This document shows, piece by piece, positions 1-17,887 of a DNA stretch of 20,661 nucleotides. Each line of letters starts with the position of its first letter. The stretch's first letter is position 1. The DNA is from a virus (Duplodnaviria > Heunggongvirae > Uroviricota > Caudoviricetes): the IMG/VR virus record IMGVR_UViG_2872152978_000006, positions 1-20,661 of that record; one strand, 5' to 3'. The position numbers were made by a program, and so were the translations under genes. The notes under the pieces are model-generated. The model searched no databases and was not told the DNA's origin. It was given only the letters and a program-made list of their open reading frames with translations.

Positions 1-1203
1 GTGAAACTCAATGCCCGTCAAATAGACACAGCCAAGCCAAAAGAGAAGGCTTACAAGCTGGCCGATGGTGGCGGTTTGTATCTCTTGGTAAAACCTAATG
101 GAGGTAAATACTGGCGACTTAAATATCGTGTAGCTGGTAAAGAGAAGCTATTGGCACTAGGTGTGTATCCTGAGGTTACTCTAGCCGATGCTCGGGCAAA
201 ACGTGAAGATGCGAAAAGAGGTATCGCTGGTGGTATCGATCCGATGGAAGCGAAACGAGAGGAAAAGATTGCCCGGGAAACGCAGTTAAACAACACCTTC
301 AAAGATATTGCCCTTGAGTGGCACAGCAGCAAATTAAAAAAATGGTCTGCTGGTTATGCTTCAGACATCCTCGAAGCCTTCAACAAAGATGTGTTCCCTT
401 ACATTGGCAAAAAACCAATCGCCGAAATCAAACCACTTGAACTTCTGAATGTGCTGCGGCGCATCGAGGGGCGCGGTGCTACAGAAAAAGCCAAAAAAGT
501 GAGGCAGCGGTGCGGGGAAGTTTTCCGCTATGCAATAGTCACTGGTCGCGCAGAGTATAACCCTGCACCAGACCTTACTAGCGCGATGCAAGGCCATGAA
601 TCTAATCATTACCCTAAAGAATTACCTGATTTTTTCAAGGCATTGTCCAGTTACTCAGGAAGCGCATTGGTTGTTATGGCGGCTCGTCTACTGGTTATCA
701 CCGGCTTGCGGACTGGCGAACTACGTGGCGCATTATGGGATGAAATTGATTTCAACAAGGCTATCTGGGAGATACCCGCTTCACGTATGAAAATGCGGCG
801 GCCTCATATTGTGCCATTGTCTGATCAGGCTCTTTCGCTTATTGGGAAGATTAGAGAAATAACAGGCAATTACCCTCTTATGTTTCCCGGGCGCAATGAT
901 CCAAGGAAAACAATGAGTGAGGCCAGCATAAACCAAGTGTTTAAGCGCATTGGCTACGCTGGACGTGTAACTGGTCATGGGTTCCGGCACACTATGAGCA
1001 CGATTTTGCATGAGCAGGGCTATAACACCGCGTGGATAGAAACGCAGCTCGCTCACGTTGATAAGAACTCAATTCGTGGCACATACAACCATGCGCAATA
1101 TCTGGATGGAAGGCGGGAGATGCTTCAATGGTATGCCGACTATATGGATGCGCTGGAGAAGGAGGAGAACGTTGTTCATGGTTCGTTTGGGAAACGAGCT
1201 TAA
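1..1203 (+). CDS. P4/CP4-57-type tyrosine integrase (site-specific recombinase)
   Basis: 400-aa ORF with GTG start at window position 1; N-terminal motif KPKEKAYKLADGGGLYLLVKPNGGKYWRLKYR and C-terminal HGFRHT...HVDKN...RGTYNHAQY match the P4-type integrase family from memory. Start coincides with window edge, so a few N-terminal codons could lie upstream. Confidence 0.85.
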   Translation: MKLNARQIDTAKPKEKAYKLADGGGLYLLVKPNGGKYWRLKYRVAGKEKLLALGVYPEVTLADARAKREDAKRGIAGGIDPMEAKREEKIARETQLNNTFKDIALEWHSSKLKKWSAGYASDILEAFNKDVFPYIGKKPIAEIKPLELLNVLRRIEGRGATEKAKKVRQRCGEVFRYAIVTGRAEYNPAPDLTSAMQGHESNHYPKELPDFFKALSSYSGSALVVMAARLLVITGLRTGELRGALWDEIDFNKAIWEIPASRMKMRRPHIVPLSDQALSLIGKIREITGNYPLMFPGRNDPRKTMSEASINQVFKRIGYAGRVTGHGFRHTMSTILHEQGYNTAWIETQLAHVDKNSIRGTYNHAQYLDGRREMLQWYADYMDALEKEENVVHGSFGKRA

Positions 1204-1345
1204 CTGTATGAATAGACCGTGTTAAGCAATGGTAGTAGACTTATGTAGACGAACAAAGAATAGGCTATGTCTAGGCTGATCCCCGAAAACCCGTACACCC
1301 CTACGGGCTGGCATAGCCGTCAGAATTAGGGGCGCGGGGTGGCGT

Positions 1346-2227
1346 ATGGTGAGAGCCAAAAAACAAGATTTAGCATGGTTTGATATTAGTAATTATGAAT
1401 TTTTAAATGATTTAACCTTGCCGGACTTGATTCAAGAATTAGAGTGGCGCGATTTTTTATTGCGTCATGCAAAAGATGACACTGCTATATTCAAAGAAGA
1501 GTACGATATAAAATATGAAAGGATTTTTTCGGGCGATCCTAACCTAACCATTCTCAATGAAGAAGAGGAAGAGGTCGAAGAATTTATTCGCAAAGTAAAT
1601 GATGAAGCCCCATCATTAAGAAATGAGTACGATGATCTTCCCTCATTATCTTCAGCTATGGGGGTTAGTCCAGTAACATTTTCAGAGCTGGCCATGTACT
1701 CTTTCTCATCGATAGATCAAGGCTTTTTTAAAAGAGACGAAGAGGATTGCTACCTCAAGGCAAACGCTATGCTTGCGAGTGTTACTGGAAACCTAAGTAA
1801 TTGTTCCCCTAACATCATACTCGTTTCTATAGATTTAGATGACGCCACTGATGACGAAATTATTACCAGCCTGACTCACCTTCTACCTCTATGGCGAAAA
1901 GAGTTAAAAGTACCAGAGAGAGAGCATGTCGCTCAGAAAAGGATTGGATTAAAGACCCTTCAGAAGTTGATATCTAATAGAGTGATACCTATTGTTGATC
2001 TGCTGATTTGGGGTGAGAAGTCAGGTAAGGAAGTGAGCAATCCGATGATTTCTGCCTTGGTTTTTAGTGATGATCCGAAAGATACGCAGGCTATTAAGGA
2101 ATCAATAAAGCCTTTTGCACTTGAATCTATAAGCGAGAGATACACCCGCTTGCTTCAGCTTTATGTAAACAAAGACAGAGAAATGAGCTTGATAAAAATA
2201 TCTGATTTAATGAGTAGAGATTTATAG
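1346..2227 (+). CDS. hypothetical acidic protein, AT-rich cargo gene in the int-alpA slot
   Basis: 293-aa ORF, ATG start, visibly AT-rich relative to flanks, many D/E residues including an EEEEEVEE run; no family recognised. Confidence 0.55.
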   Translation: MVRAKKQDLAWFDISNYEFLNDLTLPDLIQELEWRDFLLRHAKDDTAIFKEEYDIKYERIFSGDPNLTILNEEEEEVEEFIRKVNDEAPSLRNEYDDLPSLSSAMGVSPVTFSELAMYSFSSIDQGFFKRDEEDCYLKANAMLASVTGNLSNCSPNIILVSIDLDDATDDEIITSLTHLLPLWRKELKVPEREHVAQKRIGLKTLQKLISNRVIPIVDLLIWGEKSGKEVSNPMISALVFSDDPKDTQAIKESIKPFALESISERYTRLLQLYVNKDREMSLIKISDLMSRDL

Positions 2228-2271
2228 CAAGCAAAATCCTACGTAAACGTTTTAAGTAAATTTCGCGATTT

Positions 2272-2306
2272 CCGCTTTGAATACGCTACTGTGTATTTCA
2301 AAGCGG
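2272..2306. promoter_or_regulatory. inverted repeat (10-bp arms CCGCTTTGAA / TTCAAAGCGG, 15-nt loop) upstream of alpA
   Basis: Perfect 10-bp arms read directly; lies between the orphan gene stop and alpA; no T-run directly after it, so function (terminator or operator) is uncertain. Confidence 0.3.
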
Positions 2307-2424
2307 ATAATCTTCTCAAAAAAATATTTTATTTTTATCCGCTATCACCCATTCACCGGTTTGTTTAATCTCCTTTCTGTCTACTGATGTCCATTAAAGA
2401 AGATGACAGAATATAGGAGTAAAC

Positions 2425-2622
2425 ATGTCTCAATCATTTATTCGTCTTTCTGAGGTTCAACGCCGTACTGGTTACAGCAAAGCGTGGATTTATCGGCTCA
2501 TCAAAGAACAGCGATTCCCTCAATCTGTAAAGATTGGAAGCCGATCAATTGCGTTTATTGAAAGTGAAATTGAAGAATGGATTAATCAGCGCATCGCTGA
2601 GTCGCGTGGCGAGGTAGCGTAA
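2425..2622 (+). CDS. alpA: AlpA-family phage transcriptional regulator / excisionase-like DNA-binding protein
   Basis: 65-aa ORF with AGGAG RBS; sequence FIRLSEVQRRTGYSKAWIYRLIKEQRFPQSVKIGSRSIAFIESEIEEWI fits the AlpA/Vis helix-turn-helix family. Confidence 0.85.
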   Translation: MSQSFIRLSEVQRRTGYSKAWIYRLIKEQRFPQSVKIGSRSIAFIESEIEEWINQRIAESRGEVA

Positions 2623-2964
2623 TGAATAAGAAAAACCGCCCATTACAGGCGGCTAATTCAGATATTCGCGTATCTGATGTTACGCCCCTTACAAAATCCC
2701 TTCAAGCACCAAAGCGCACACCGAAAAAGCATCGTGCCAGAGTCTATATGCTGCGTACTGGTATAGAGGGATGGACAGAAAATGACATTCTTCGCTACTG
2801 CCGTCTGTCTTCTGGTCGTAACTATGCAACAGAGTTAGAACGCCAGCTTGGAATCACTCTGGAACGTATCGACGAAAAGAATCCTGATGGTATCGGAACA
2901 CACCTTCGCTACCGTTTCTCCTGCCGTGGTGATGTTCTGAAAGTGATCACTCATGGATTTGCCC

Positions 2965-3870
2965 CTATATTTCCAGACATCTGTTATCACTTAACCCATT
3001 ACAAGCCCGCTGCCGCAGATATTCCCGTGGCGAGCGATAACCCAGCGCACTATGCGGATGCCATTCGTTATAATGCTCGAACGCCTCTGCAAGGTTCTTT
3101 GCTGCCGTTAACCCGTCTGGTTTGGGCATGATACTGATGTAGTCACGCTTTATCGTTTTCACGAAGCTCTCTGCTATTCCGTTACTCTCCGGACTCCGCA
3201 CCGCCGTGTTCTTCGGTTCAAGTCCCAACATCCGGGCGAACTGGCGTGTTTCATTAGCCCGGTAGCATGAACCATTATCCGTCAGCCACTCCACTGGAGA
3301 CGACGGAAGATCGTTGCCGAAGCGGCGTTCCACCGCTCCCAGCATGACGTCCTGTACTGTTTCACTGTTGAAGCCGCCGGTAGTCACCGCCCAGTGCAGT
3401 GCCTCACGATCACAGCAGTCCAGCGCGAACGTGACACGCAGTCTCTCTCCGTTATCACAGCAGAACTCGAACCCGTCAGAGCACCATCGCTGATTGCTTT
3501 CTTTCACGGCCACTCTGCCTGTATGTGCCCGTTTCGATGGTGGTACAGCAGGTTTTCGCTCAAGCAACAGCGCATTCTGGCGCATGATCCGGTAAACACG
3601 TTTGGCATTGATCGCAGGCATACCATCAAGTTCTGCCTGTCTGCGAAGCAGCGCCCATACCCGACGATAACCATACGTGGGCAGCTCTCCGATAACATGG
3701 TGTATACGGAGAAGCACATCCGTATCATCAGTGTGACGACTGCGGCGGCCATCCATCCAGTCATCGGTTCGTCTGAGAATGACGTGCAACTGCGCACGCG
3801 ACACCCGGAGACAACGGCTGACTAAGCTTACTCCCCATCCCCGGGCAATAAGGGCGCGTGCGCTATCCAC
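2965..3870 (-). CDS. insD: IS2 transposase OrfB (InsD)
   Basis: 301-aa ORF recognised as IS2 InsD (DDE integrase core, HSDRGSQY-type region). Confidence 0.9.
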
Positions 3871-4193
3871 TTTTTTGCCCGTCCATATTCAACGGCTTCT
3901 TTGAGGAGTTCATTTTCCATCGTTTTCTTGCCGAGCAGGCGCTGGAGTTCTTTAATCTGCTTCATGGCGGCAGCAAGTTCAGAGGCAGGAACAACCTGTT
4001 CTCCGGCGGCCACAGCAGTAAGACTTCCTTCCTGGTATTGCTTACGCCAGAGAAATAACTGGCTGGCTGCTACACCATGTTGCCGGGCAACGAGGGAGAC
4101 CGTCATCCCCGGTTCAAAGCTCTGCTGAACAATTGCGATCTTTTCCTGTGTGGTACGCCGTCTGCGTTTCTCCGGCCCTAAGACATCAATCAT
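3828..4193 (-). CDS. insC: IS2 OrfA (InsC), HTH protein
   Basis: Start placed at the internal Met of the 136-aa ORF ([25 protein letters not shown]...), giving the 121-aa InsC; overlaps insD start as expected for a frameshift-fusion IS3-family element. Confidence 0.85.
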
Positions 4194-4401
4194 CTGTACT
4201 CCAATGACTAGTCTAAAAACTAGTATTAAGACTATCACTTATTTAAGTGATACTGGTTGTCTGGAGATTCAGGGGGCCAGTCTAACTCATATTAACCATC
4301 TTGCGAACATAAATGATCACAACGGACTTTCTCAGCAGGAAATTGCCGACATTCTGAAACTCTACCCGGACGCGTTTAACGCCGCTTAACGGAGACTGAA
4401 A

Positions 4402-5235
4402 ATGAACATCGAAAAAAGCAGATTAATTTCTGAGGCCGCCCCTCATCTGAACGCCTCTCTGAGCACAATTAACGGTAATGAATTTGCCGCAATTGTCCCG
4501 GTTATTCCTGGTCATATCGGTGGGCGTGAAACCAATATTGTTAGCGCAAAAGCGTTACACAAAGCGTTGGGCGTGGGAAAAGACTTCTCTACATGGATCA
4601 CTGATCGCATCTCTGAATATGACTTCACCATTGGGCACGATTACTCAGTCCATAAAACAATTTCCCCAAATTTGGGGAAAAGCCCGAATGGCGCGGCTTA
4701 CAGCAAGATTAAGCAGTCTGGCAGACCCGGCAAAGACTATCTGTTAAGTGTCGGAATGGCGAAAGAACTGGCAATGATCGAACGCAATGATCAGGGTCAC
4801 GCTATCCGCCGTTATTTCATCCAGTGCGAGGAAGAATTACAGCGTAGCGTGCCTGAAATCGCCGCACGCTATCGTCGCCAGCTAAAAGCCCGTATCAGTG
4901 CCGCAAACAACTTTAAGCCAATGTGCGATGCGCTGAATATGGCCCGTGCCGAGATGGGGAAAACGACGCAGCAACACCACTACACAAACGAGAGCAATAT
5001 GATTTCTCGTATCGTTCTTGGTGGGCTAACTGCTAAGCAGTGGGCGCGGATAAATGGCTATTCTGGCGAACCTCGCGACCATATGAACGCAGAACAGCTT
5101 GAGCACCTCTCATATCTCGAAAGCACCAATATCACGTTAATTGATATGGGCATGGAATATGAGCAGCGCAAAGGAGAACTCACCCGCCTGTCGCAACGCT
5201 GGCTCGCCAAGCGTCTGGAGGCGCTCAATGTCTAA
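4402..5235 (+). CDS. phage antirepressor-like protein (AntA/Bro-N-type N-terminal domain)
   Basis: 277-aa ORF; region SAKALHKALGVGKDFSTWITDRISEYDFTIGHDY and GMAKELAMIERNDQGHAIRRYFIQCEEEL resemble AntA/antirepressor domains. Family call from memory. Confidence 0.55.
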   Translation: MNIEKSRLISEAAPHLNASLSTINGNEFAAIVPVIPGHIGGRETNIVSAKALHKALGVGKDFSTWITDRISEYDFTIGHDYSVHKTISPNLGKSPNGAAYSKIKQSGRPGKDYLLSVGMAKELAMIERNDQGHAIRRYFIQCEEELQRSVPEIAARYRRQLKARISAANNFKPMCDALNMARAEMGKTTQQHHYTNESNMISRIVLGGLTAKQWARINGYSGEPRDHMNAEQLEHLSYLESTNITLIDMGMEYEQRKGELTRLSQRWLAKRLEALNV

Positions 5236-5407
5236 GCCAACAGGAACACCACAACCACAAAAACGCTACAAAGATGCCCACGGAGCACTCGTTACTGTCG
5301 AAAGCGTGTCTCACAACCGAGTGACGTTTTATCGCGACGGGTATCAATCGCCATGCGTACAACCGCTGGCGCGTTTCATGAAGGAGTTCGCGGAGGTTAA
5401 CCAATGA
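5228..5407 (+). CDS. small hypothetical protein (59 aa)
   Basis: ATG at 5228 overlaps the upstream stop (AATGTCTAA) and its stop overlaps the next start (ATGA): translational coupling. Confidence 0.4.
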   Translation: MSKPTGTPQPQKRYKDAHGALVTVESVSHNRVTFYRDGYQSPCVQPLARFMKEFAEVNQ

Positions 5408-6065
5408 TACCCGTCCAGAAGAAGACATTTTCACTGGCTGGCATGTCGCCAAAATCCAGAAATATGACGGCAAAGTCAGGCATTAATACAGCAGATACAA
5501 GCAAAGTTTATCATTTGCTGGTGGTCGGAACGGATGCCTTAACCATACCAGAAATCTCGGGCGATGATATTAGCATTGAGAAGGTCAGCGGCTGCGCCAG
5601 AAAATTTCTGGTCGTAGATGATGTCTTCAGCTCGTGTAGTGACTCCACAAAAACATTCGTCCACGCGCGTGACGTTAACGAAATGAGCGCGATGTACTGT
5701 GCTTCTGGTTCTTCCAATAGTGAGTTTTCGGAGTCCATAAAAAAGAGCTTGCCGTTATGCGGCAACACGGTTTATGGTTATAAGGCACCTCATAAAACGG
5801 GTGCCGGGATTGGCGTCCTGGTAAATCGAATGGCGACATATGACGCGCCGAGCGTCTTTTTTTATGTCGTAGGTCTGACTCACCCATTTTTTGGGCGTTG
5901 GTGTATAATCCAGCGCCTTTGTCAATCAATGGTGGCTCAGGCAGGGGCTTCTTCGGAAGCGCCGGTATCCATTCGAGCCGGTTACGCCAACCCTGTCTGG
6001 GCTACCACCAGCGAAATTGGCGTTTCCGGTGGTAGCGTTACATGCTATCGAATGGAGGCTGCCAC
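5404..6065 (+). CDS. hypothetical protein; 3' extent uncertain (the open frame continues to 6471 but overlaps better-supported small genes in other frames)
   Basis: Start is coupled to the upstream gene by ATGA overlap; 355 stop-free codons are unlikely by chance, but the protein has no recognisable features. Confidence 0.25.
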
Positions 6066-6260
6066 ATGCTGGCTACTACCCCTACCCAAAAACCGCAATT
6101 TATCTGGATTATCGCCGCAGTTCGCCGCGATTGCCCGACAATTACCGCCAAAATTCATCATATTGCTGCCGAGTCTGAACGCGATGCTCGCCGTTATCTG
6201 GTGCGCGATCACATCTGCTTTTTTGCTGGTCGTATCCGCATGGAGGTGGCACATGATTAA
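6066..6260 (+). CDS. Icd-like small protein (host cell division inhibitor family of P4-like elements)
   Basis: 64-aa ORF with GGAGG RBS 7 nt upstream; motif QFIWIIAAVRR...AAESERDARRYL...FAGRI resembles Icd-like proteins. From memory. Confidence 0.45.
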   Translation: MLATTPTQKPQFIWIIAAVRRDCPTITAKIHHIAAESERDARRYLVRDHICFFAGRIRMEVAHD

Positions 6261-6471
6261 AACCTACGATGTGCATATGGATCCCCTCGAACGCACAAGC
6301 CAGATCATCACACTGACAGAAGTGATTAACGACATTCTGGTGAGCAACTCTCCCTCACGAGACGAAAGACTGAAGGCGTTACTCGCGATATTGGATCTCG
6401 CCGTTCGTGACGTTCATTTCCTGCTGGAAGGTGGCGAAATGCCAGGAAAAACGGGGGCAACCAATGAATAA
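6253..6471 (+). CDS. small hypothetical protein (72 aa)
   Basis: ATG with GGAGG RBS; start overlaps the Icd-like stop; stop overlaps the next start. Confidence 0.4.
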   Translation: MIKTYDVHMDPLERTSQIITLTEVINDILVSNSPSRDERLKALLAILDLAVRDVHFLLEGGEMPGKTGATNE

Positions 6472-6658
6472 CTCAATTAATACCCCTCGCCTTACGTCCG
6501 CACTTCAATTAATCGAGCAAGCAGCGGCTGTCCTGGTTGCTGTCAGTCTTTCGGCTGAAGAAATGGACGCTACTGATGTCGTGGATGCGATTAAAGCGTG
6601 CTCATCTTTGGTTAACGATGCCCGTGCCGAGCTGGTAATTCTTGGGGGTGAAAAATGA
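6464..6658 (+). CDS. small hypothetical protein (64 aa)
   Basis: ATG at 6464 inside the longer track ORF 6407-6658; overlapping start/stop with neighbours. Confidence 0.4.
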   Translation: MNNSINTPRLTSALQLIEQAAAVLVAVSLSAEEMDATDVVDAIKACSSLVNDARAELVILGGEK

Positions 6659-6918
6659 ATATCAACTTAATTTATCGTCATCCGTGTGAGCTGGAAATTG
6701 AATCATTGCTGGGGCGTGAAGAGCCATATCCAGACACATTCACTCCCGCAGATTGCGCGACTGAACGGCTTACCAGAGCGCGCACAGGTCTGGTTCATGT
6801 GATGAATGAGATTGTTCCCTCGGTGGGAGGGGAACAGGCGACAGTAATCAATAGCTGGCTACAAAAAGTTACCTCCCTGATAGATATCGGTTTAATCGAT
6901 GTGGAGAGTGCGAAATGA
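6655..6918 (+). CDS. small hypothetical protein (87 aa)
   Basis: ATGA overlap with upstream gene; part of the coupled small-gene chain. Confidence 0.45.
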   Translation: MNINLIYRHPCELEIESLLGREEPYPDTFTPADCATERLTRARTGLVHVMNEIVPSVGGEQATVINSWLQKVTSLIDIGLIDVESAK

Positions 6919-7070
6919 CCAACATCCAGCTCATTGAAGCGCAATGTCGCATCGAACAGGTTCAGACTGTTTTAGGGTTCTGGCTTGAAGGGGCCAGCCC
7001 CAGCAACAGAGACAAGTTAATGATTGGCGCGGTTATGTCACTGCTCAATGGCGTACCAGAAGCTATTTAG
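6915..7070 (+). CDS. small hypothetical protein (51 aa)
   Basis: ATGA overlap with upstream stop; below the ORF-track length cutoff; translated by eye as MTNIQLIEAQCRIEQVQTVLGFWLEGASPSNRDKLMIGAVMSLLNGVPEAI. Confidence 0.35.
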   Translation: MTNIQLIEAQCRIEQVQTVLGFWLEGASPSNRDKLMIGAVMSLLNGVPEAI

Positions 7071-7108
7071 GAAGCGGACGAATTGTTGGGCAAATATGAG
7101 TTACAGAA

Positions 7109-8427
<1,319 letters not shown>

Positions 8428-8947
8428 GAACCAGACGTTCGCTCCTACAGCACCAAATCAGGTCTGGGTGGCGGACCTGACGTATGTTGCCACACAGGAG
8501 GGATGGTTGTACCTCGCTGGCATCAAAGATGTTTATACGTGCGAAATTGTCGGCTACGCCATGGGAGAGCGCATGACAAAAGAGCTGACAGGTAAAGCCC
8601 TGTTTATGGCGCTCAGGAGCCAGCGCCCACCTGCCGGGCTAATCCACCACTCTGATCGAGGTTCACAGTACTGCGCATACGATTACCGGGTCATACAGGA
8701 GCAGTCTGGTCTGAAAACATCAATGTCGCGTAAAGGTAACTGTTACGACAACGCTCCGATGGAAAGCTTCTGGGGAACGCTGAAAAATGAGAGCCTGAGC
8801 CACTATCGTTTTAATAACCGGGATGAAGCCATCTCAGTAATACGGGAATACATTGAGATTTTCTACAATCGTCAGCGTCGTCACTCTCGTCTGGGGAATA
8901 TCTCCCCGGCAGCCTTCAGGGAAAAATATCATCAGATGGCTGCTTAA
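8428..8947 (+). pseudogene. C-terminal fragment of a different IS3-family transposase OrfB (IS600-like?)
   Basis: Open frame begins at the IS911 junction with no N-terminal portion; contains DDE-region motifs HSDRGSQY and SRKGNCYDNAPMESFWGTLKNE; precise IS identity not recognised. Confidence 0.75.
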
Positions 8948-8958
8948 AAAAAGAACAA

Positions 8959-9462
8959 ATGGTAGTGTCCGCTATTGCCAGTACACCTCACCGGGTGGCA
9001 TGGATAAACCCGGAAGAGAGTAAATCAAACCGCGCAATTGGCGTTGCGCTGAATGATACTGCATGTCGCGTATTGAAAAAACAAATCGGGAATCATCACC
9101 GTTGGGTATTTGTGTATAAGGAAAGCTGTACCAAACCAGACGGAACGAAAGCGCCAACAGTCAGGAAGATGCGGTATGACGCAAACACAGCCTGGAAAGC
9201 GGCGCTGAGACGAGCAGGTATTGATGATTTCAGATTTCACGACTTGAGACACACCTGGGCAAGTTGGCTGGTTCAAGCCGGAGTCCCGTTATCAGTGTTA
9301 CAGGAAATGGGAGGCTGGGAGTCTATCGAAATGGTTCGTCGATATGCTCACCTCGCACCTAATCACCTTACCGAACACGCACGGCAAATAGACTCGATTC
9401 TGAACCCATCGGTCCCAAATTTGTCCCAGTCAAGAAATAAGGAACGTACTAATGATGTGTAA
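8959..9462 (+). pseudogene. C-terminal fragment (about 155 aa) of a tyrosine integrase
   Basis: Contains the catalytic HxxR box ([11 protein letters not shown]) and Tyr region ([12 protein letters not shown]) but not the N-terminal domains or first catalytic Arg; begins right after the IS3-family remnant. Integrase homology starts near 8990. Confidence 0.7.
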
Positions 9463-9690
9463 CTTATTGATTTAAATGGGATAATAGGAACAATACACAT
9501 AGGCGATAAGCTTTGTTTTTGTTGCCTTTTTTATTGTTCATTTTTTATAGATACCCCCAAAAGTACCCCCATATCTTTTTCCGCCCCTGAAATTTGGTTG
9601 TTATTCATACACCATATCAGGCGGTAACGCTCTCCCTTTAACCCACTTATTGTATGATAGTGCTATCCCACAATAAGGAATCAGCCAGCC

Positions 9691-10050
9691 ATGAGAATGA
9701 CCAGTCGCAAAAAAGAGATACTTAGCTACTTTGAACCGGATAACCTCGAATGGGTGACTGGTGAGATTGGTGCGCCGCCGTTCGATGTGTCGGGTGTGGC
9801 CTACCTGCTTCATGGCATGGTGTCGTTCGATAAGCGTCACCAGCTCGAATCAACCCGGCGCACACTGGAAAGCATGGTTGCTGGTGGACTGCTTGAGCGG
9901 GTGACAGTGTATGAATCGCGCCAGATACGGCGCGGCGGTGATACTAACGCAACGGTCGTGCGCTACGGTTTACCCGGTCAGTGCGCTGTTATGCGCGATA
10001 CTGGCGGCGCTGACAACGCAATATCAGGTGAATACATGCGGGTCAGTTAA
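9691..10050 (+). CDS. hypothetical protein (119 aa)
   Basis: ATG with AAGGA RBS; no family recognised; 3' end overlaps the convergent gene by 8 bp. Confidence 0.45.
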   Translation: MRMTSRKKEILSYFEPDNLEWVTGEIGAPPFDVSGVAYLLHGMVSFDKRHQLESTRRTLESMVAGGLLERVTVYESRQIRRGGDTNATVVRYGLPGQCAVMRDTGGADNAISGEYMRVS

Positions 10051-10585
10051 TAGCCTGCAATCTGTCGTTGATGCGGCTCAGGTCGTAAACCCGGCGTTCA
10101 ATATCCAGCATCAGGAAATTGTGGATCTCGGCCTGCTCAGGATTATCAGACTCTCTGGCCTGTAATAGCAATTCATTGTAACCATGCAAGCCGCCTGAGT
10201 TTTCCGCCGGGGTGGTGCCTTTCCCACGCAGGCAGCTAATGGGCTGATTACTCGTATCGTGTGTTTTCTTCTCCAGCACAATGACGCAATCCCACCAGTC
10301 GCCAAAGTCATACGTGTAAACCAGCTTGTCACCCTCATTCTGGAGCGCCGCCCATAGTGGCGTGATTGCCGCGTTACCCATGCTTTCATCCTCACCCCAT
10401 ACGCGATACTCGCTACCTGGATCACCTTTACGCCCTTTCTCGAACATATACAGGTGTTCGTCATTCCAGCCAAAAGCTAACTGGATCACGGCATGAAGTT
10501 TACTAAAGGGGATTTGCTCTGGAACCAGCACACGCCGCCATATAGGTGGTTTGCTGTCTCGGATGGTTATCTTTAGCTGGTACAT
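10043..10585 (-). CDS. plasmid pRiA4b ORF3-like family protein (function unknown)
   Basis: 180-aa ORF; N-terminal YQLKITIRDSKPPIWRRVLVPEQIPFSKLHAVIQLAFGWNDEHLYMF matches the pRiA4b ORF-3 signature. Confidence 0.75.
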   Translation of the reverse strand: MYQLKITIRDSKPPIWRRVLVPEQIPFSKLHAVIQLAFGWNDEHLYMFEKGRKGDPGSEYRVWGEDESMGNAAITPLWAALQNEGDKLVYTYDFGDWWDCVIVLEKKTHDTSNQPISCLRGKGTTPAENSGGLHGYNELLLQARESDNPEQAEIHNFLMLDIERRVYDLSRINDRLQAIN

Positions 10586-10705
10586 GCAAATCCTGAATAA
10601 ATGCGAATCGGAAGGATAACGATACTGACGTACTCACAATTCTGTAAAGGTGAATAAAGGAAATTTGCTTAATACGCATAAGTTACATGTGGAATAATCC
10701 CATAT

Positions 10706-10891
10706 CTACCTGCGCGGCGCTGGCTTCTTCCACTGGTAGGCAGGTGCTCGCATCATTTCGCGGAACCTGTCGCGCCGGGCTATATCGGCATTAACTGATC
10801 GTTCTATCTCCCGTTGATCTGCCTGTGTAAGCTGGTGGCCTCCGTGCTCAAGTTTGGCGATGGTCAATAAGGCTATTTCGCGTGGTGTCAT
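10706..10891 (-). CDS. small hypothetical protein (61 aa)
   Basis: Good SD (AGAGGA) 8 nt upstream of the ATG on the minus strand; no family recognised. Confidence 0.4.
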   Translation of the reverse strand: MTPREIALLTIAKLEHGGHQLTQADQREIERSVNADIARRDRFREMMRAPAYQWKKPAPRR

Positions 10892-11162
10892 ACGTCATAT
10901 CCTCTGGAAGGATGAAACACGCCCGGATTAAATTTCATTTTTCGCGGGTATAAAAAAACGATGGGGCGGGCAGTCCCGGATAGTCAGGGCTGTAGAGATT
11001 TGACTACCCCCTCCCCACTGTATTCAGGTTACTGCTATTCCGTTAAGCGCTGCTTACGGGGATAGCTGCGTTGTGATTTTGACCATTCAGGTCGCCGCTA
11101 TTTCCTCACCGATTGGGTGCTACGCGCGCGCGTACTTGTCCCGAAATACCAGAAACCGCCAG

Positions 11163-11184
11163 CCAGAGGATGATTTCCCTCTGG
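11163..11184 (-). terminator. hairpin (CCAGAGG - 8 nt - CCTCTGG) just downstream of the minus-strand PerC gene
   Basis: 7-bp perfect stem 5 bp beyond the PerC stop; T-run is weak, so terminator function is tentative. Confidence 0.3.
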
Positions 11185-11188
11185 TGGT

Positions 11189-11470
11189 CTACCTTTGCCT
11201 CTTGCCGCCATTTAACCGGAAGGCGTTACCGTTCGGTTGCGCTATCCCCATGCGGTGTTGCGTTTCGGTAACAGCTTTATGCAGGTCGCCAAATTCCTCA
11301 ACCTTCACGGGCGGGCGCTTCACGTTCTCCAGACACGTTTCACGGCGGCGCTTTATCCATTCCCGATCATCGTCCTCGGAGCATAACAGCATGACTTCCA
11401 TCCATCGTGCGGCAGCTCTCCGGTATAGCCCTTTTGACTCCAGCTCTTCAGCTTTCCTGTCCCTTATCAT
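11189..11470 (-). CDS. PerC-family transcriptional regulator
   Basis: 93-aa ORF with ELESKGLYRRAAARWMEVM, characteristic of PerC/Pch-like prophage regulators; GAGG RBS. Confidence 0.7.
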   Translation of the reverse strand: MIRDRKAEELESKGLYRRAAARWMEVMLLCSEDDDREWIKRRRETCLENVKRPPVKVEEFGDLHKAVTETQHRMGIAQPNGNAFRLNGGKRQR

Positions 11471-11505
11471 TTCTGCCTCTCAGATTATATAGATAAGCAA
11501 AAAGG

Positions 11506-11620
11506 TGTTGGTTCAGTTGGTTTAATTTGTAAAGATCGTTGTTTTTATTATGTTTTTTTCTAAAATATTGAACCAACATCAACTCATTTTGAACCAACAC
11601 AGCCCAGCTCTGAACCAACA
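11506..11620. repeat. iteron array: TGAACCAACA direct repeats at 11569, 11590, 11611 (exact 21-bp phasing) plus one inverted copy at 11506-11515
   Basis: Read directly from sequence; sits in the divergent intergenic region between PerC (minus) and the RHH gene (plus). Confidence 0.7.
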
Positions 11621-11685
11621 ACACAGCGATAGCTTTGTGATTGGTCCGTTATTTTCTGGCTGATATTTGAGCGTATAACAGTGTT

Positions 11686-11704
11686 ATACAGTGGTATACT
11701 GTAT
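11686..11704. promoter_or_regulatory. 7-bp inverted repeat ATACAGT - 5 bp - ACTGTAT (candidate operator) about 30 bp upstream of the RHH gene start
   Basis: Arms at 11686-11692 and 11698-11704 are exact reverse complements. Confidence 0.35.
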
Positions 11705-11733
11705 GGATATTACTCACTGATATGGTCTTTGCA

Positions 11734-12177
11734 ATGAGCAAATCTAATCTGATCGCGTTCCGCATCCCATCTTAATTGCAGGATGAGTTTAATCGGTCTG
11801 TTCTCGCTTCTGGAGGGGATAAAACCTCCTGGCTTGTTGATGCGATTCGCATGAAGCTGGGACAGCCGGAAAAGTCTATTGATTCACGAATGCTTGGGCT
11901 GGTGGAGCGCATGGAAAAAGCCGCTGCGTCGCTTATTGCCGGAAAGCCGAACATCCCACCAAAGCCATATAACGAAACGGCAGTTATAAAGATCATTGCC
12001 GATACCATCCAACAGGGATTTGATAATGGGCGTGTGATAGCTGAACGGATCAATGAAGCAGGCTATCAAACAAAAGCTGGTAAAGCGTGGGATAAAGATA
12101 TTTACAGCGCGTGGAAGCGTCAGGGAAGCAATGCTGAAAATTTAAAAGCGGTGATTGATTGTAAGGTCAGCGTATAA
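11734..12177 (+). pseudogene. ribbon-helix-helix (Arc/MetJ/CopG-like) DNA-binding protein with an in-frame TAA after codon 13
   Basis: ATG 11734 encodes MSKSNLIAFRIPS, then TAA at 11773-11775, then the same frame continues LQDEFNRSVLASGGDKTSWLVDAIRMKLG..., the helix-turn-helix part of an RHH fold. The ORF track places a TTG restart at 11776. Confidence 0.5.
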
Positions 12178-12289
12178 ACATGAGTGCCCATTGGAAAGTA
12201 AGCGTACAGCCTGAACCGTCTGGTCAGAATCTGACGAATTAGACAAAGTGGTGTCCACCAAATAAGTAGTGGGAACCAAAGTGTCAGAT

Positions 12290-12670
12290 ATGCAGAAAAA
12301 TGTGAATCCCGGCAGGCGAAAAGGCTGCCCTAATTATCCTCCCGAATTTAAACAGCAGCTCGTTGCTGCCTCCTGTGAACCCGGGATATCCATCTCAAAA
12401 CTTGCTCTTGAAAATGGCATTAACGCCAATCTGTTGTTCAAATGGCGACAACAATGGCGCGAGGGAAAGCTGCTATTACCTTCTTCAGAGAGCCTCCAGC
12501 TACTTCCTGTGACTCTCGATGCAGCTGCCGAACAGCCAGAATCGCTCGCAGAGGATCCGGAAACCCTCAGTATCAGCTGTGAGGTAACGTTCCGGCACGG
12601 GACGCTCCGCTTCAATGGCAATGTCAGCGAAAAGCTCCTGACTCTGCTGATACAGGAACTGAAGCGATGA
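12290..12670 (+). CDS. IS66-family TnpA (orf1)
   Basis: Family-typical small HTH protein; ATG at 12290 preferred, alternative GTG at 12269 from the ORF track. Confidence 0.75.
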   Translation: MQKNVNPGRRKGCPNYPPEFKQQLVAASCEPGISISKLALENGINANLLFKWRQQWREGKLLLPSSESLQLLPVTLDAAAEQPESLAEDPETLSISCEVTFRHGTLRFNGNVSEKLLTLLIQELKR

Positions 12671-13014
12671 TCCCGTTACCTTCCGGGACCAAAATTTGGC
12701 TGGTTGCCGGTATCACCGATATGAGAAATGGCTTCAACGGCCTGGCGGCAAAGGTGCAGACGACGCTGAAAGACGATCCGATGTCAGGTCACGTTTTTAT
12801 CTTCCGTGGGCGTAATGGCAGTCAGGTAAAGCTCCTCTGGTCTACCGGCGATGGACTGTGTCTGCTGACCAAACGGCTGGAGCGCGGCCGCTTCGCCTGG
12901 CCGTCAGCCCGGGATGGCAAAGTGTTCCTCACACCGGCACAGCTGGCGATGCTCCTTGAAGGTATCGACTGGCGGCAGCCTAAAAGACTGCTTACGTCCC
13001 TGACTATGTTGTAA
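12667..13014 (+). CDS. IS66-family TnpB (orf2)
   Basis: 115-aa ORF coupled to tnpA by ATGA overlap; motif LVAGITDMRNGFNGLAAKV. Confidence 0.85.
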   Translation: MIPLPSGTKIWLVAGITDMRNGFNGLAAKVQTTLKDDPMSGHVFIFRGRNGSQVKLLWSTGDGLCLLTKRLERGRFAWPSARDGKVFLTPAQLAMLLEGIDWRQPKRLLTSLTML

Positions 13015-13062
13015 GCCTCTTTATCCTGGTCGACGCTGAATGAGCCTGGTAATATACCCGGT

Positions 13063-14601
13063 ATGAGCAGCTCACTTCCTGACGATATCAATGCACTGAA
13101 ACGTCTCCTTGCCGAACAGGAGGCGCTGAACCGTGCCCTGCTGGAAAAGCTGAACGAGCGTGAACGCGAAATAGACCATCTGCAGGCACAGCTGGATAAG
13201 CTGCGCCGGATGAACTTCGGCAGCCGCTCCGAAAAAGTCTCCCGTCGTATCGCACAGATGGAAGCTGACCTGAAGGCACTTCAGAAAGAAAGTGATACCC
13301 TTACCGGTCGGGTTGACGACCCGGCCGTGCAGCGCCCGCTGCGTCAAACCCGCACCCGCAAACCGTTCCCCGAATCACTCCCCCGCGATGAAAAACGGCT
13401 GCTGCCGGCAGCGTCATGCTGCCCGGAATGTGGAGGCTCACTGAGCTATCCGGGTGAGGATGCCGCCGAACAGCTGGAGTTGATGCGCAGCGTCTTCCGG
13501 GTTATCCGGACTGTACGTGAAAAGCATGCCTGTACTCAGTGCGATGCCATCGTGCAGGCCCCCGCGCCTTCACGGCCCATCGAGCGGGGTATCGCAGGAC
13601 CGGGGCTGCTGGCCCGCGTGCTGATCTCAAAGTATGCAGAGCACACCCCGCTGTACCGCCAGTCTGAAATGTACGGCCGCCAGGGCGTGGAGCTGAGTCG
13701 TTCACTGCTGTCGGGCTGGGTGGATGCATGCTGCCGGCTACTGTCACCGCTGGAAGAAGCGCTTCAGGACTATGTGCTGACTGACGGTAAGCTCCATGCT
13801 GATGACACGCCTGTCCCGGTGCTGTTGCCAGGCAATAAGAAAACGAAGACCGGGCGGTTATGGACCTACGTTCGTGACGACCGTAACGCCGGGTCAACGC
13901 TGGCGCCGGCGGTGTGGTTCGCTTACAGCCCGGACAGAAAAGGCATCCATCCGCAGACCCATCTTGCGGGGTTCAGTGGTGTACTGCAGGCGGATGCATA
14001 CGCCGGGTTCAACGAGCTGTACCGGGATGGCCGGATAACGGAAGCCGCCTGTTGGGCTCACGCCCGCCGTAAAATCCACGATGTGCACGTTCGCACCCCG
14101 TCAGCCCTGACGGAGGAAGCGCTGAAACGGATCGGCGAACTGTACGCCATCGAGGCAGAGATAAGGGGAATGACGGCGGAGCAGCGCCTTGCCGAACGTC
14201 AGTTGAAAACGAAACCGCTGCTGAAATCCCTGGAAAGCTGGCTGCGTGAAAAGATGAAAACCCTGTCGCGACACTCAGAACTGGCGAAAGCGTTCGCATA
14301 CGCCCTGAACCAGTGGCCGGCGCTGACGTACTATGCAGATGATGGCTGGGCTGAGGCGGACAATAACATCGCTGAAAATGCGTTGCGGATGGTCAGTCTG
14401 GGCCGCAAAAACTACCTGTTCTTCGGTTCGGATCATGGAGGAGAGCGGGGAGCGCTGCTGTACAGCCTGATCGGGACGTGCAAACTGAACGGAGTGGAGC
14501 CAGAAAGCTACCTCCGCTATGTCCTTGACGTCATAGCCGACTGGCCGATAAACCGGGTCGGCGAACTGCTCCCCTGGCGCGTAGCACTGCCGACTGAATA
14601 A
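13063..14601 (+). CDS. IS66-family transposase TnpC (orf3)
   Basis: 512-aa ORF with N-terminal leucine-zipper region, CxxC zinc-finger-like motifs (CCPECGG, CTQCD) and a DDE-type core. Confidence 0.9.
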
Positions 14602-14623
14602 CACATCCCCGTCAATACGGTTC

Positions 14624-15205
14624 TTGCTGCACGCTTACAAAAAAGCGGGTTTTCACCCGTCAGAATCTGGCGGGGATCCGTCAGTAAAATCAAAACATGA
14701 TCCGTCAGATAAAAAACCTTCTCGTCCGGACGCTTCGCAACCGGACACGCAGACGGCTGAACAGGATTTTTTAACTCGCCATCCTGATGCGGTTGTATTC
14801 AGCCCTAAAAAGCGCCAGTGGGGGACGCAGGATGATTTGACCTGCGCACAGTGGCTCTGGAAAAAAATCATCGCCCTGTACGAGCAGGCTGCCGAATGTG
14901 ACGGCGAGGTGGTTCGTCCCAAAGAACCGAACTGGACAGCCTGGGCAAACGAAATTCGCCTGATGTGTGTACAGGATGGCCGTACACACAAACAAATCTG
15001 CGAGATGTACAGCCGCGTCAGCCGCGATCCGTTCTGGTGCCGTAACGTGCTCAGCCCGTCGAAGTTGCGGGAAAAATGGGATGAGCTTTCCCTGCGCTTA
15101 TCGCCGTCCGTCAGCACGCACACAGAAAAACGTGAAGACCCGTACTTCAAAGCCAGTTACGACAACGTGGACTACAGCCAGATCCCGGCAGGATTCAGGG
15201 GGTGA
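14624..15205 (+). CDS. DnaT-like phage replication protein (primosomal DnaT C-terminal domain); 5' end abuts or is interrupted by the IS66 element
   Basis: C-terminus ...SYDNVDYSQIPAGFRG parallels the E. coli DnaT C-terminal end (...SQIPPGFRG, from memory); the ORF-track start is a TTG inside the IS terminal repeat, so the native start is probably lost or upstream of the insertion. Confidence 0.6.
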   Translation: MLHAYKKAGFHPSESGGDPSVKSKHDPSDKKPSRPDASQPDTQTAEQDFLTRHPDAVVFSPKKRQWGTQDDLTCAQWLWKKIIALYEQAAECDGEVVRPKEPNWTAWANEIRLMCVQDGRTHKQICEMYSRVSRDPFWCRNVLSPSKLREKWDELSLRLSPSVSTHTEKREDPYFKASYDNVDYSQIPAGFRG

Positions 15206-15207
15206 GC

Positions 15208-15696
15208 ATGAGTCTTTTGAATGACGTTCAGAAATTCATTGAAGCCCATCCGGGGTGTACTTCCGGAGACATTGCGGATGCTTTTGCAGGTTACTCACGG
15301 CAGCGCGTTCTGCAGTCTGCAAGCAAGTTACGTCAGAGTGGGCGTGTGGCTCACCGTTGTGAAGGAGATACACGCAGACATTTCCCGCGCCTGACTGAGA
15401 GAGCGCAGGAACCGGGACCACAATCAGTTCGAGAAACCAGACCTGTGCGCAATTTCTATGTCGGCACTAACGATCCCCGGGTGATTTTGTGCCTGACCCG
15501 CCAGGCTGAAGAACTGGAGTCCAGGGGCTTATACCGTCGTGCTGCAACGGTGTGGATGGCGGCATTCCGTGAAAGCCACTCCCAGCCAGAACGAAACAAT
15601 TTTCTGGCGCGTCGTGAGCGGTGCTTACGGAAAAGCAGCAAGCGCGCTGTATCGGGTGATGAGTGGTATCTGTCAGGGAATTACGTGGGGGCTTAA
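15208..15696 (+). CDS. PerC-family regulator with N-terminal winged-helix-like extension
   Basis: Contains AEELESRGLYRRAATVWMAAF, paralogous to the motif in 11189-11470; ATG 15208 preferred (GGGGG RBS) over the overlapping GTG at 15202. Confidence 0.65.
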   Translation: MSLLNDVQKFIEAHPGCTSGDIADAFAGYSRQRVLQSASKLRQSGRVAHRCEGDTRRHFPRLTERAQEPGPQSVRETRPVRNFYVGTNDPRVILCLTRQAEELESRGLYRRAATVWMAAFRESHSQPERNNFLARRERCLRKSSKRAVSGDEWYLSGNYVGA

Positions 15697-16349
15697 TGAG
15701 TAATAAATATTGCCAGGCGCTGGTGGAGTTGCGAAACAAACCAGCCCATGAACTGAAGGAAGTGGGCGATCAGTGGCGCACACCGGACAACATTTTCTGG
15801 GGAATTAACACCCTGTTTGGCCCGTTTGTTCTGGAGCTGTTTACTGACGGTGATAACGCCAAATGTGCCGCGTATTACACGGCGGAAGACAACGCGCTGG
15901 CGCATGACTGGTCAGAACGTCTTGCGGAGCTTAAAGGTGCTGCCTTTGGAAATCCTCCATACAGCCGCGCCAGTCAGCATGAGGGGCAATACATCACCGG
16001 CATGCGTTACATCATGAAACATGCCAGTGCCATGCGTGATAAGGGCGGGCGCTATGTTTTCCTGATCAAAGCTGCCACCAGCGAAGTGTGGTGGCCGGAA
16101 GATGCGGATCATATTGCTTTTATTCGCGGGCGTATTGGTTTTGAACTGCCTGCCTGGTTTATCCCGAAAGACGAGAAGCAGGTGCCAACCGGTGCTTTCT
16201 TCGCTGGTGCTATTGCCGTTTTCGACAAGACCTGGAAGGGACCGGCAATCAGCTACATCGGGCGCGATGAACTTGAGGCATGTGGTGAGGCCTTTCTGGC
16301 GCAAGTTCGCCAGCAGGCAGAAAAACTTGTCAGGGAGATGGCGGCATGA
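15696..16349 (+). CDS. phage DNA N6-adenine methyltransferase (Dam-like)
   Basis: ATG overlaps upstream stop (TAATG); catalytic NPPY motif (FGNPPYS) and overall similarity to phage Dam methylases. Confidence 0.75.
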   Translation: MSNKYCQALVELRNKPAHELKEVGDQWRTPDNIFWGINTLFGPFVLELFTDGDNAKCAAYYTAEDNALAHDWSERLAELKGAAFGNPPYSRASQHEGQYITGMRYIMKHASAMRDKGGRYVFLIKAATSEVWWPEDADHIAFIRGRIGFELPAWFIPKDEKQVPTGAFFAGAIAVFDKTWKGPAISYIGRDELEACGEAFLAQVRQQAEKLVREMAA

Positions 16350-16672
16350 CGACGTTAACTCAATGCCAGCAGCAGGTGCTGGATATGCTGATTTCTTACC
16401 AGAAAGAACGTGGCTTCCCGCCAACCAATCAGGAGGTGGCAACCATGCTGGGATACCGTTCAGTGAATGCAGCGGTGGAGCATCTTAGAGCACTGGAGAA
16501 AAAAGGCGTCATCACGATAAAGCGTGGTGTGGCCCGTGGTATCACTCTTCATACCGCGGTGAAGGACGACGACAGCGAGGCGGTCGGGATTATCCGCTCA
16601 CTGCTTGCCGGTGAGGAAAACGCAAGGCTGCGTGCAACTCACTGGTTACATGAGAGAGGCCTGAAAGTATGA
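16346..16672 (+). CDS. LexA-like N-terminal DNA-binding domain protein (no peptidase domain)
   Basis: ATGA coupling; LTQCQQQVLDMLISYQKERGFPPTNQEVATMLGYRSVNAAVEHLRALEKKGVI resembles the LexA winged-helix DNA-binding domain. Confidence 0.65.
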   Translation: MTTLTQCQQQVLDMLISYQKERGFPPTNQEVATMLGYRSVNAAVEHLRALEKKGVITIKRGVARGITLHTAVKDDDSEAVGIIRSLLAGEENARLRATHWLHERGLKV

Positions 16673-17058
16673 AGCTGATCCTGCCTTTCCCGCCCAGCGT
16701 GAACACCTACTGGCGACACCCCAACAAAGGGGCATTTGCTGGTAAGAGCCTGATAAGCGCGGCGGGGCGAAAATTTCAGAGCGCGGCGTGCGCAGCAATA
16801 GTTGAGCAGTTACGTCGTCTGCCAAAACCAACGTCGGCACCTGCTTCAGTGGAGATCGTGTTGTTTCCTCCGGATAACCGGATCCGCGATCTGGACAACT
16901 ATAACAAGGCGCTGTTTGACGCCCTGACCCACGCGGGTGTGTGGGAAGACGACAGACAGGTGAAAAGAATGCTGGTGGAGTGGGGACCGGTTATCCCGAA
17001 AGGGAAGGTCGAGATCACTATCAGTAAGTATGAGAAACCGGCGGGTGCAGCCGCCTGA
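16669..17058 (+). CDS. rusA: RusA-family Holliday junction resolvase
   Basis: 129-aa ORF; LPFPPSVNTYWRH...DLDNYNKALFDALTHAGVWEDD matches RusA endodeoxyribonuclease motifs including the catalytic Asp cluster. Confidence 0.85.
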   Translation: MKLILPFPPSVNTYWRHPNKGAFAGKSLISAAGRKFQSAACAAIVEQLRRLPKPTSAPASVEIVLFPPDNRIRDLDNYNKALFDALTHAGVWEDDRQVKRMLVEWGPVIPKGKVEITISKYEKPAGAAA

Positions 17059-17077
17059 TTAAGAGGAGAAACGAAGT

Positions 17078-17887
17078 ATGAATAATCTGATGGTTATTGA
17101 TGGTATTGAAGTTCGTCGTGATGCTTATGGGCGTTACAGCCTGAACGATCTGCACAGGGCAGCCGGGGGAGAACAAAAAAACCGCCCGAAATACTGGCTC
17201 TCCAATAAGCAAACCTGTGAATTGATTGAACAACTTTTCACCGAGGGTGGAATTCCGCCTCTGGAACAAAATCAACCAGTTAGCGTCATTAATGGCGGAA
17301 ATAACCAGGGGACGTATGTCTGCAAAGAACTGGTGTATGCCTATGCAATGTGGATCAGCCCGTCATTCCATCTGAAGGTGATCCGTACTTTCGATATGGT
17401 AACCAGCGCACCGGAAAAATTATCCGGGCAGGCTGCTGACAAGATGCAGGCTGGAGTGATTCTGCTGGACTTTATGCGCAGGGAGTTAAACCTGTCTAAC
17501 TCTTCAGTGCTTGGTGCCTGTCAGAAACTCCAGGAGGCTGTTGGCTTACCGAATCTGGCACCGCGCTATGCCATTGATGCTCCTGCTGACGCGCCTGATG
17601 GCTCAAGTCGCCCTACGCTGTCGCTGAGTGCACTGCTGAAACAGTATGGTATCCGCCTTACGGCTAATCAGGCATATCACCAGATGGCGAAGCTGGGGAT
17701 CGTTGAACAACGCGAACGATACAGCCGTACCTCGATTAACAACATCAAAAAATTCTGGTCGCTGACAGCGAAAGGCTGCATGTTCGGCAAGAACATCACC
17801 AGTCCCGCAAATCCGCGCGAGACGCAGCCGCATTTCTTCGAATCCCGATTCCCTGAGCTGTTAAAGCTGCTCGATACCGTTCATTGA
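17078..17887 (+). CDS. KilA-N domain protein
   Basis: AGGAG RBS; N-terminal MVIDGIEVRRDAYGRYSLNDLHRAAGGEQKNRPKYWLSNKQT typical of the KilA-N DNA-binding domain. Confidence 0.7.
   Translation: MNNLMVIDGIEVRRDAYGRYSLNDLHRAAGGEQKNRPKYWLSNKQTCELIEQLFTEGGIPPLEQNQPVSVINGGNNQGTYVCKELVYAYAMWISPSFHLKVIRTFDMVTSAPEKLSGQAADKMQAGVILLDFMRRELNLSNSSVLGACQKLQEAVGLPNLAPRYAIDAPADAPDGSSRPTLSLSALLKQYGIRLTANQAYHQMAKLGIVEQRERYSRTSINNIKKFWSLTAKGCMFGKNITSPANPRETQPHFFESRFPELLKLLDTVH

Follow-up and report, generated by a model that had tools for sequence, protein, structure and literature searches.

Background

The closest described counterpart of the locus studied here is the int'-IS600 structure that lies downstream of thrW/proA in Shigella flexneri, at the integration site of the serotype-converting phages SfI, SfII, SfIV, SfV and SfX. 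Phages of the SfIV/SfII/SfI/SfV type integrate at thrW, beside proA (PMC3306764). In a map of the S. flexneri proA-yaiC region, the host genes marked as conserved include a putative int and IS600 (PMC3306764, Fig. 2 legend), and by this legend the association of int with IS600 at the thrW site is already in the literature. A second counterpart is found in the tandem thrW islands of Escherichia coli (strains SWHEFF_68 and CP131_Sichuan), in which a P4-type satellite is followed by an Sf/P22-type integrase or prophage.

We analyzed a stretch of 20,661 nucleotides, called the window below, of which positions 1-17840 are 100 % identical to a locus (L015) in CP026840.1. The corresponding assembly, GCA_002950155.1, is listed as a Shigella dysenteriae ATCC strain (PMC12679885, Table 6). 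The window shares with the S. flexneri structure the integrase family, the thrW att site and an IS600 placed beside a putative int in the host backbone (PMC3306764). It differs in that IS911 interrupts IS600 at nt 701/702, the block is in inverted orientation, a P4-type island lies between thrW and the integrase fragment (int'), and the host is S. dysenteriae. With the E. coli tandem islands it shares island sequences (about 99 % identical) and the same att core, located where the island end meets the 3' end of int; however, the arrangement is co-linear and IS-free in E. coli, whereas in the window it is broken by IS911 and IS600 and partly inverted. The locus is an instance of known biology, as it illustrates how IS600, IS911 and an IS66-family element scramble the thrW hotspot into which serotype-converting phages insert in Shigella.

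Results and discussion

Composition of the scar

Three abutting pieces were observed at positions 8428-9462 and their left border: IS911, a remnant of a second IS3-family element and a C-terminal integrase fragment. The initial annotation, made from the sequence alone, had proposed this arrangement, and the alignments bear it out with base-exact coordinates (Table 1). The pieces are genuine and are not chance resemblances. The segment 8428-9462 is an ordinary nested IS scar and is dead. An RNA-gene search found no RNA gene within it.

Table 1 Features of the scar and its surroundings (window positions)
Feature	Position	Strand	Description
P4-type island, proximal part	1-7179	+	integrase, DUF6387, AlpA, AntA, ash region with C4/isrK RNAs
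IS911 copy	7180-8427	-	1248 bp; assigned by inverted repeats and identity to annotated copies
IS911 orfA	8053-8355		within the minus-strand element
IS600 remnant	8428-8990	+	nt 702-1264 of 1264 (563 nt)
Chimeric ORF, 167 aa	8959-9462	+	start in IS600 right inverted repeat, then integrase residues 217-372
int' fragment	8991-9462	+	thrW-specific tyrosine integrase gene, last 472 nt (nt 648-1119)
Decayed att core	9476-9488	-	TGGGATAATAGGA, copy of thrW 3' end
P4-type island, distal (att-side) end	9489-12198		119-aa ORF, pRiA4b ORF-3 family protein, PerC
IS66-family element	12199-14637	+	three ORFs: 133, 115 and 512 aa
Lambdoid nin/Q module	from 14638		directly beyond the IS66-family element

IS600 remnant

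The second IS3-family member was identified as IS600 (1264 bp). Positions 8428-8990 share 99.8 % nucleotide identity with a complete IS600 (locus L001, 2501-3063) and 99.6-99.8 % over 563 bp with copies annotated as IS600. With the intact 1264-bp IS600 of locus L008 as the numbering reference, nt 702 of IS600 was found to be the first base after 8427; the truncated transposase thus begins exactly at the IS911 end, as had been claimed. The right end, sought within 8948-8990, is at 8990 (...GGTAGTGTCCGCTATTGCCAGTACACCTCA), where an authentic right inverted repeat ends in ...CCTCA. The ORF covering the remnant gave Pfam matches to rve, rve_3 and rve_2 (E = 4e-26 to 5e-14), and these matches together with the IS600 identity identify 8428-8947 as transposase sequence.

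The remnant retains OrfB codons 101-272, which hold the DDE/rve core, and the right inverted repeat. The left inverted repeat (TGAGGTAGCC), orfA, the frameshift region and OrfB residues 1-100 are missing. A complete IS600 has both inverted repeats and orfA/orfB with a programmed frameshift, and the window holds a remnant only. Because it has a single end, with neither the left inverted repeat nor orfA, the remnant is unable to transpose, and ORF 8402-8947 is better annotated as a truncated IS600 OrfB. No 3-bp target-site duplication was found for IS600 in the window or in loci L008-L011, where the left partner, the 5' half of int, is absent.

Integrase fragment and chimeric ORF

Integrase homology begins at 8991, right after the IS600 end. 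The Pfam Phage_integrase profile (PF00589) was matched with an E-value of 5.6e-32 at profile positions 52-171 of 172, positions 1-51 being missing. When the fragment was aligned to full-length relatives of 372 aa, residues 217-372 were found to be retained, with the breakpoint between int nt 647 and 648. These 156 integrase-derived residues align gap-free with only 1-2 substitutions. The full-length relatives are 97.6-99.2 % identical in amino acid sequence to the 372-aa integrase (Int) of SfIV/SfII/SfI/SfV and about 89 % identical to Int of P22-like Salmonella phages; int' is the remnant of a lambdoid thrW integrase of this Sf/P22 type.

The fragment had been described as keeping only the HxxR and catalytic Tyr regions. 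Both are present (H299-x-x-R302 and Y334), but the beta-hairpin lysine K227 and W325 are retained as well. Residues 1-216 are gone, and with them Arg I (R200, in ATGLRRS) and the N-terminal DNA-binding half. The full catalytic set R-K-H-R-(H/W)-Y together with the N-terminal DNA-binding domains is not found in int', which is unable to bind or cleave DNA because it lacks Arg I and the N-terminal domains.

The chimeric ORF starts inside the IS600 inverted repeat. The IS supplies its ATG, its first 10 codons and two bases of codon 11, and the repeat is joined in frame to the integrase residues. A match of the whole product to a short non-integrase protein would have spoken against an integrase origin; an integrase match preceded by IS600-derived first codons was observed instead. 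The identical 167-aa chimera recurs in Shigella-type genomes, in at least 24 contigs. The lookup finds identical sequences only and this count has no bearing on selection; recent common descent would give such exact conservation. No sigma-70-like promoter was found in 8800-9700, none precedes the chimera, and the scan of this interval gave no sign of chimera expression. A terminator-like hairpin is present at 9501-9527. Judged from sequence, nothing in 8428-9462 is likely to be functional and no function is expected. ORF 8959-9462 is better annotated as an IS600/int chimera pseudogene than as an integrase, and the scar matters little beyond annotation.

IS911 and its flanks

The IS911 copy is full length, carries both inverted repeats (left, 7180-7206, TGAAGTGGTCAAC...; right, 8401-8427) and is 99.6 % identical over its length to E. 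coli copies annotated as 'IS3-like element IS911 family transposase'. It differs from other IS911 copies by a 1-nt deletion near 7245, close to the 3' end of orfB, which shifts the frame of that end. The frameshifted orfB runs through the left inverted repeat into island DNA as far as 7109, giving a 243-aa protein that was found in one genome only, CP026840.1.

IS911 interrupts IS600 between nt 701 and 702 and is flanked by unrelated DNA, the P4-type island on one side and IS600 on the other. No 3-bp target-site duplication was found around it; AAC stands on its left and GAA on its right. Because of these unlike flanks and the missing duplication, the junction between the island and IS911 is regarded as a later rearrangement and not as a simple insertion.

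The att core and the orientation of the block

The 3' end of the int gene adjoins an att core derived from thrW, which is located 14 nt past the stop codon. The core is decayed in the window; the E. coli relatives read TGGTGCGATAATAGGA, and the reverse complement of the tRNA is TGGTGCCGATAATAGGAG. It is intact in loci L003 and L008, beside tRNA-Thr. In E. coli VREC0761 and the Shigella loci L007-L011, a distance of 15-25 bp separates the 3' end of int from tRNA-Thr and proA.

In the source genome thrW is on the plus strand just left of window position 1, and the att core is on the opposite strand. Positions 1-7179 are 99.3 % identical to the thrW-proximal part of the P4-type island of E. coli SWHEFF_68, and positions 9489-12198 are 99.2 % identical to the far end of the same island. 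When compared with this one island (about 99.2-99.3 % identity), 1-7179 and 9463-12198 match on opposite strands relative to the window. The order in SWHEFF_68 and CP131_Sichuan is thrW, island proximal part, island distal part, att core and int in reverse. The block containing the scar is inverted, since the att core and the distal island end are inverted relative to thrW and to window 1-7179.

This orientation bears on the history first proposed for the locus, in which IS911 inserted into the IS3-family element (here IS600) and a co-linear adjacent deletion then fused the P4-type island to the lambdoid prophage. Such a deletion would account both for the absence of an IS911 target duplication and for the truncation of IS600 exactly at the IS911 end. 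However, a co-linear deletion keeps orientation and cannot yield an inverted att core and island end. In the reference order, moreover, both would fall between the deletion endpoints and would have been lost. The place of the fusion does not fit either, as both sides of the IS block belong to the same island and lambdoid DNA starts only at 14638. We consider this history highly unlikely, and neither the adjacent deletion nor the reading of the scar as the fusion point could be upheld.

Comparison with other Shigella loci and order of insertions

Five Shigella loci (L007-L011) encode the identical chimeric IS600/int protein beside a full-size IS600, near thrW-proA, and an intact 1264-bp IS600 was confirmed in L008-L011. 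Because the same chimera adjoins intact IS600 in these loci, the IS600/int junction predates the IS911 insertion. The proposed sequence of events, an IS into a second integrase and IS911 then into that IS, agrees with the intact IS600 at the same int position in L008-L011, and the order of IS600 before IS911 follows from the data. The junctions of the scar were not found in any complete E. coli genome. The IS600/int junction was not found in species-representative genomes either, a collection that perhaps holds no Shigella genome.

The right end of IS911 is joined to IS600 nt 702 in loci L005, L006 and L012 as well as in the window. The outer left flank of IS911 differs: L005 has an IS66-family element there, L006 and L012 a flipped piece of the island, and the window island position 7179. 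Only one genome, CP026840.1, showed 7179 joined to the left end of IS911. The inner junctions are thus older than the island/IS911 junction, because these loci share IS911 next to the IS600 remnant but have three kinds of outer flank. Such shared inner junctions could be used as lineage markers.

Two other readings of the island junction were weighed against these comparisons. In the first, an IS911 already present in the P4-type island at 7179 transposed intramolecularly into IS600, and the junction and the inversion were made together in one step. The end structure would be the same as that given by recombination between IS911 copies, and an IS911 without target duplication would be obtained. 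A one-step origin is nevertheless unlikely, since the IS600-side junction is old and shared by L005, L006, L012 and the window while the left flank differs per group, which makes the island side new; the occurrence of the 7179 junction in a single genome points the same way. In the second, the order or orientation was mis-joined around repeats of 1.2-2.4 kb in the deposited genome. The 7179 junction is indeed seen in a single assembly, and L006 and L012 show the neighbouring island segment in the opposite orientation. An assembly artefact is almost certainly not the explanation, however, as the string of IS911, IS600 remnant, int', att core and island end occurs at about 99 % identity in the independent complete assemblies L005, L006 and L012, and the IS600/int junction in at least 24 contigs.

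Lambdoid segment and IS66-family element

The lambdoid genes begin 5 kb right of the IS block, behind the IS66-family element. No 8-bp target duplication was found for this element, which links the end of the island with a lambdoid replication-protein (HTH) gene that has lost its 5' part. Because of the missing duplication and the truncated gene, it is taken as a second rearrangement or deletion junction. The replication-protein gene is followed by PerC, Dam, LexA-like, RusA, KilA-N, DUF968 and Q genes.

In L008-L011 the DNA immediately left of IS600-int' holds the N-terminal part of this replication-protein gene. It had been suggested that the integrase fragment is a relic of the lambdoid element's own integrase. 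That it is a relic of a lambdoid-type integrase (Sf/P22) holds, and it is plausible that int' belonged to the resident prophage that owned the lambdoid nin/Q genes.

What borders IS600 on the left in L008-L011 (6000-8768) is not the 5' half of int but 2.8 kb of inverted prophage DNA from the immunity and replication region (ymfK, ymfT, ymfL and the HTH gene). This inverted flank points to an earlier, IS600-bounded inversion within the prophage.

An IS1 copy was also observed at 19788-20557, just past Q, the antiterminator gene of the lambdoid segment. Its identity is 99.6 % with the L007 copy of IS1 and about 91 % with the copies in L005 and L008-L011.

Proposed history of the locus

We think it probable that the scar was built stepwise in S. 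dysenteriae by IS600, island, IS911, inversion and IS66-family events. The ancestral order is drawn from the E. coli comparators and not from a Shigella genome with both elements intact. An Sf/P22-type lambdoid prophage would first have occupied thrW, with the 3' end of its integrase gene against the att site. IS600 would then have inserted into int between nt 647 and 648, giving the junction common to many Shigella genomes. A P4-type satellite island presumably integrated into thrW between the tRNA and int', leaving a duplicated att core beside int'; this may have happened between the IS600 and IS911 insertions, or else before or after them. IS911 would next have entered IS600 between nt 701 and 702.

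A rearrangement via IS911 would then have inverted the block made up of IS600 nt 702-1264, int', the att core and the island end and linked it to position 7179 of the island. Homologous recombination with a second, inverted IS911 located in the P4-type island at 7179 would be the likeliest mechanism; intramolecular transposition of IS911 would give the same product. The predicted reciprocal junctions would link IS600 nt 1-704 to the left end of IS911 and the rest of the island to its right end; they were not recovered and may have been deleted. The junction of the N-terminal half of int is likewise predicted to have been lost in this lineage. Finally, the IS66-family element may mark a further deletion or rearrangement that brought the lambdoid replication/nin/Q genes beside the island end, a step that we place here wholly by inference.

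Pattern of IS911 flanks in related loci

The IS911 flanks show a further pattern across strains. The island flank at or before 7179 (ending ...GACGGCGTAAAC) adjoins the left end of IS911 in the window and the right end in L006 and L012 (2769-9469 in both); the island sequence just past 7179 is AACATCATGTACC. In L006 and L012 the island segment 4291-7179 is flipped between two directly oriented IS911 copies. At the island site around 4291-4293 both sides are joined to IS911 left ends in different strains (L005, 8195-8221; L006 and L012), and the IS2 of the window sits 5 bp from this site.

Simple IS911 recombination fails to explain L006 and L012, a point against the proposed history, because recombination inside IS911 cannot swap the end that is joined to a flank. 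Single inversions, tandem-dimer events and replicative intramolecular transposition were also considered as routes from the window to the L006/L012 arrangement, and none of these reproduces the join between the IS911 right end and 7179. The swapped flanks could result from independent insertions at the same site, that is, a local IS hotspot, or from a flipping event exact to the IS ends. The latter may involve an end-exact event mediated by transposase or by terminal microhomology. The broader idea that IS911 anchored in IS600 recurrently generates rearrangements, flipping and re-joining DNA exactly at the IS ends, is most doubtful.

Other features of the P4-type island

The IS2-like element mentioned above is 1331 bp in length and occupies 2955-4285 in the P4-type island. 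It has a clean 5-bp target duplication, ACTCA (2950-2954 and 4286-4290), and is the only IS in the window that resembles a simple insertion. Rfam matches were obtained in the same island for int-alpA RNA (1264-1331), isrK (5785-5862) and C4 antisense RNA (5925-6012). A 355-aa ORF of the 'ash family' (5404-6471) overlaps the isrK and C4 RNAs, and its overlapping part may be an over-call.
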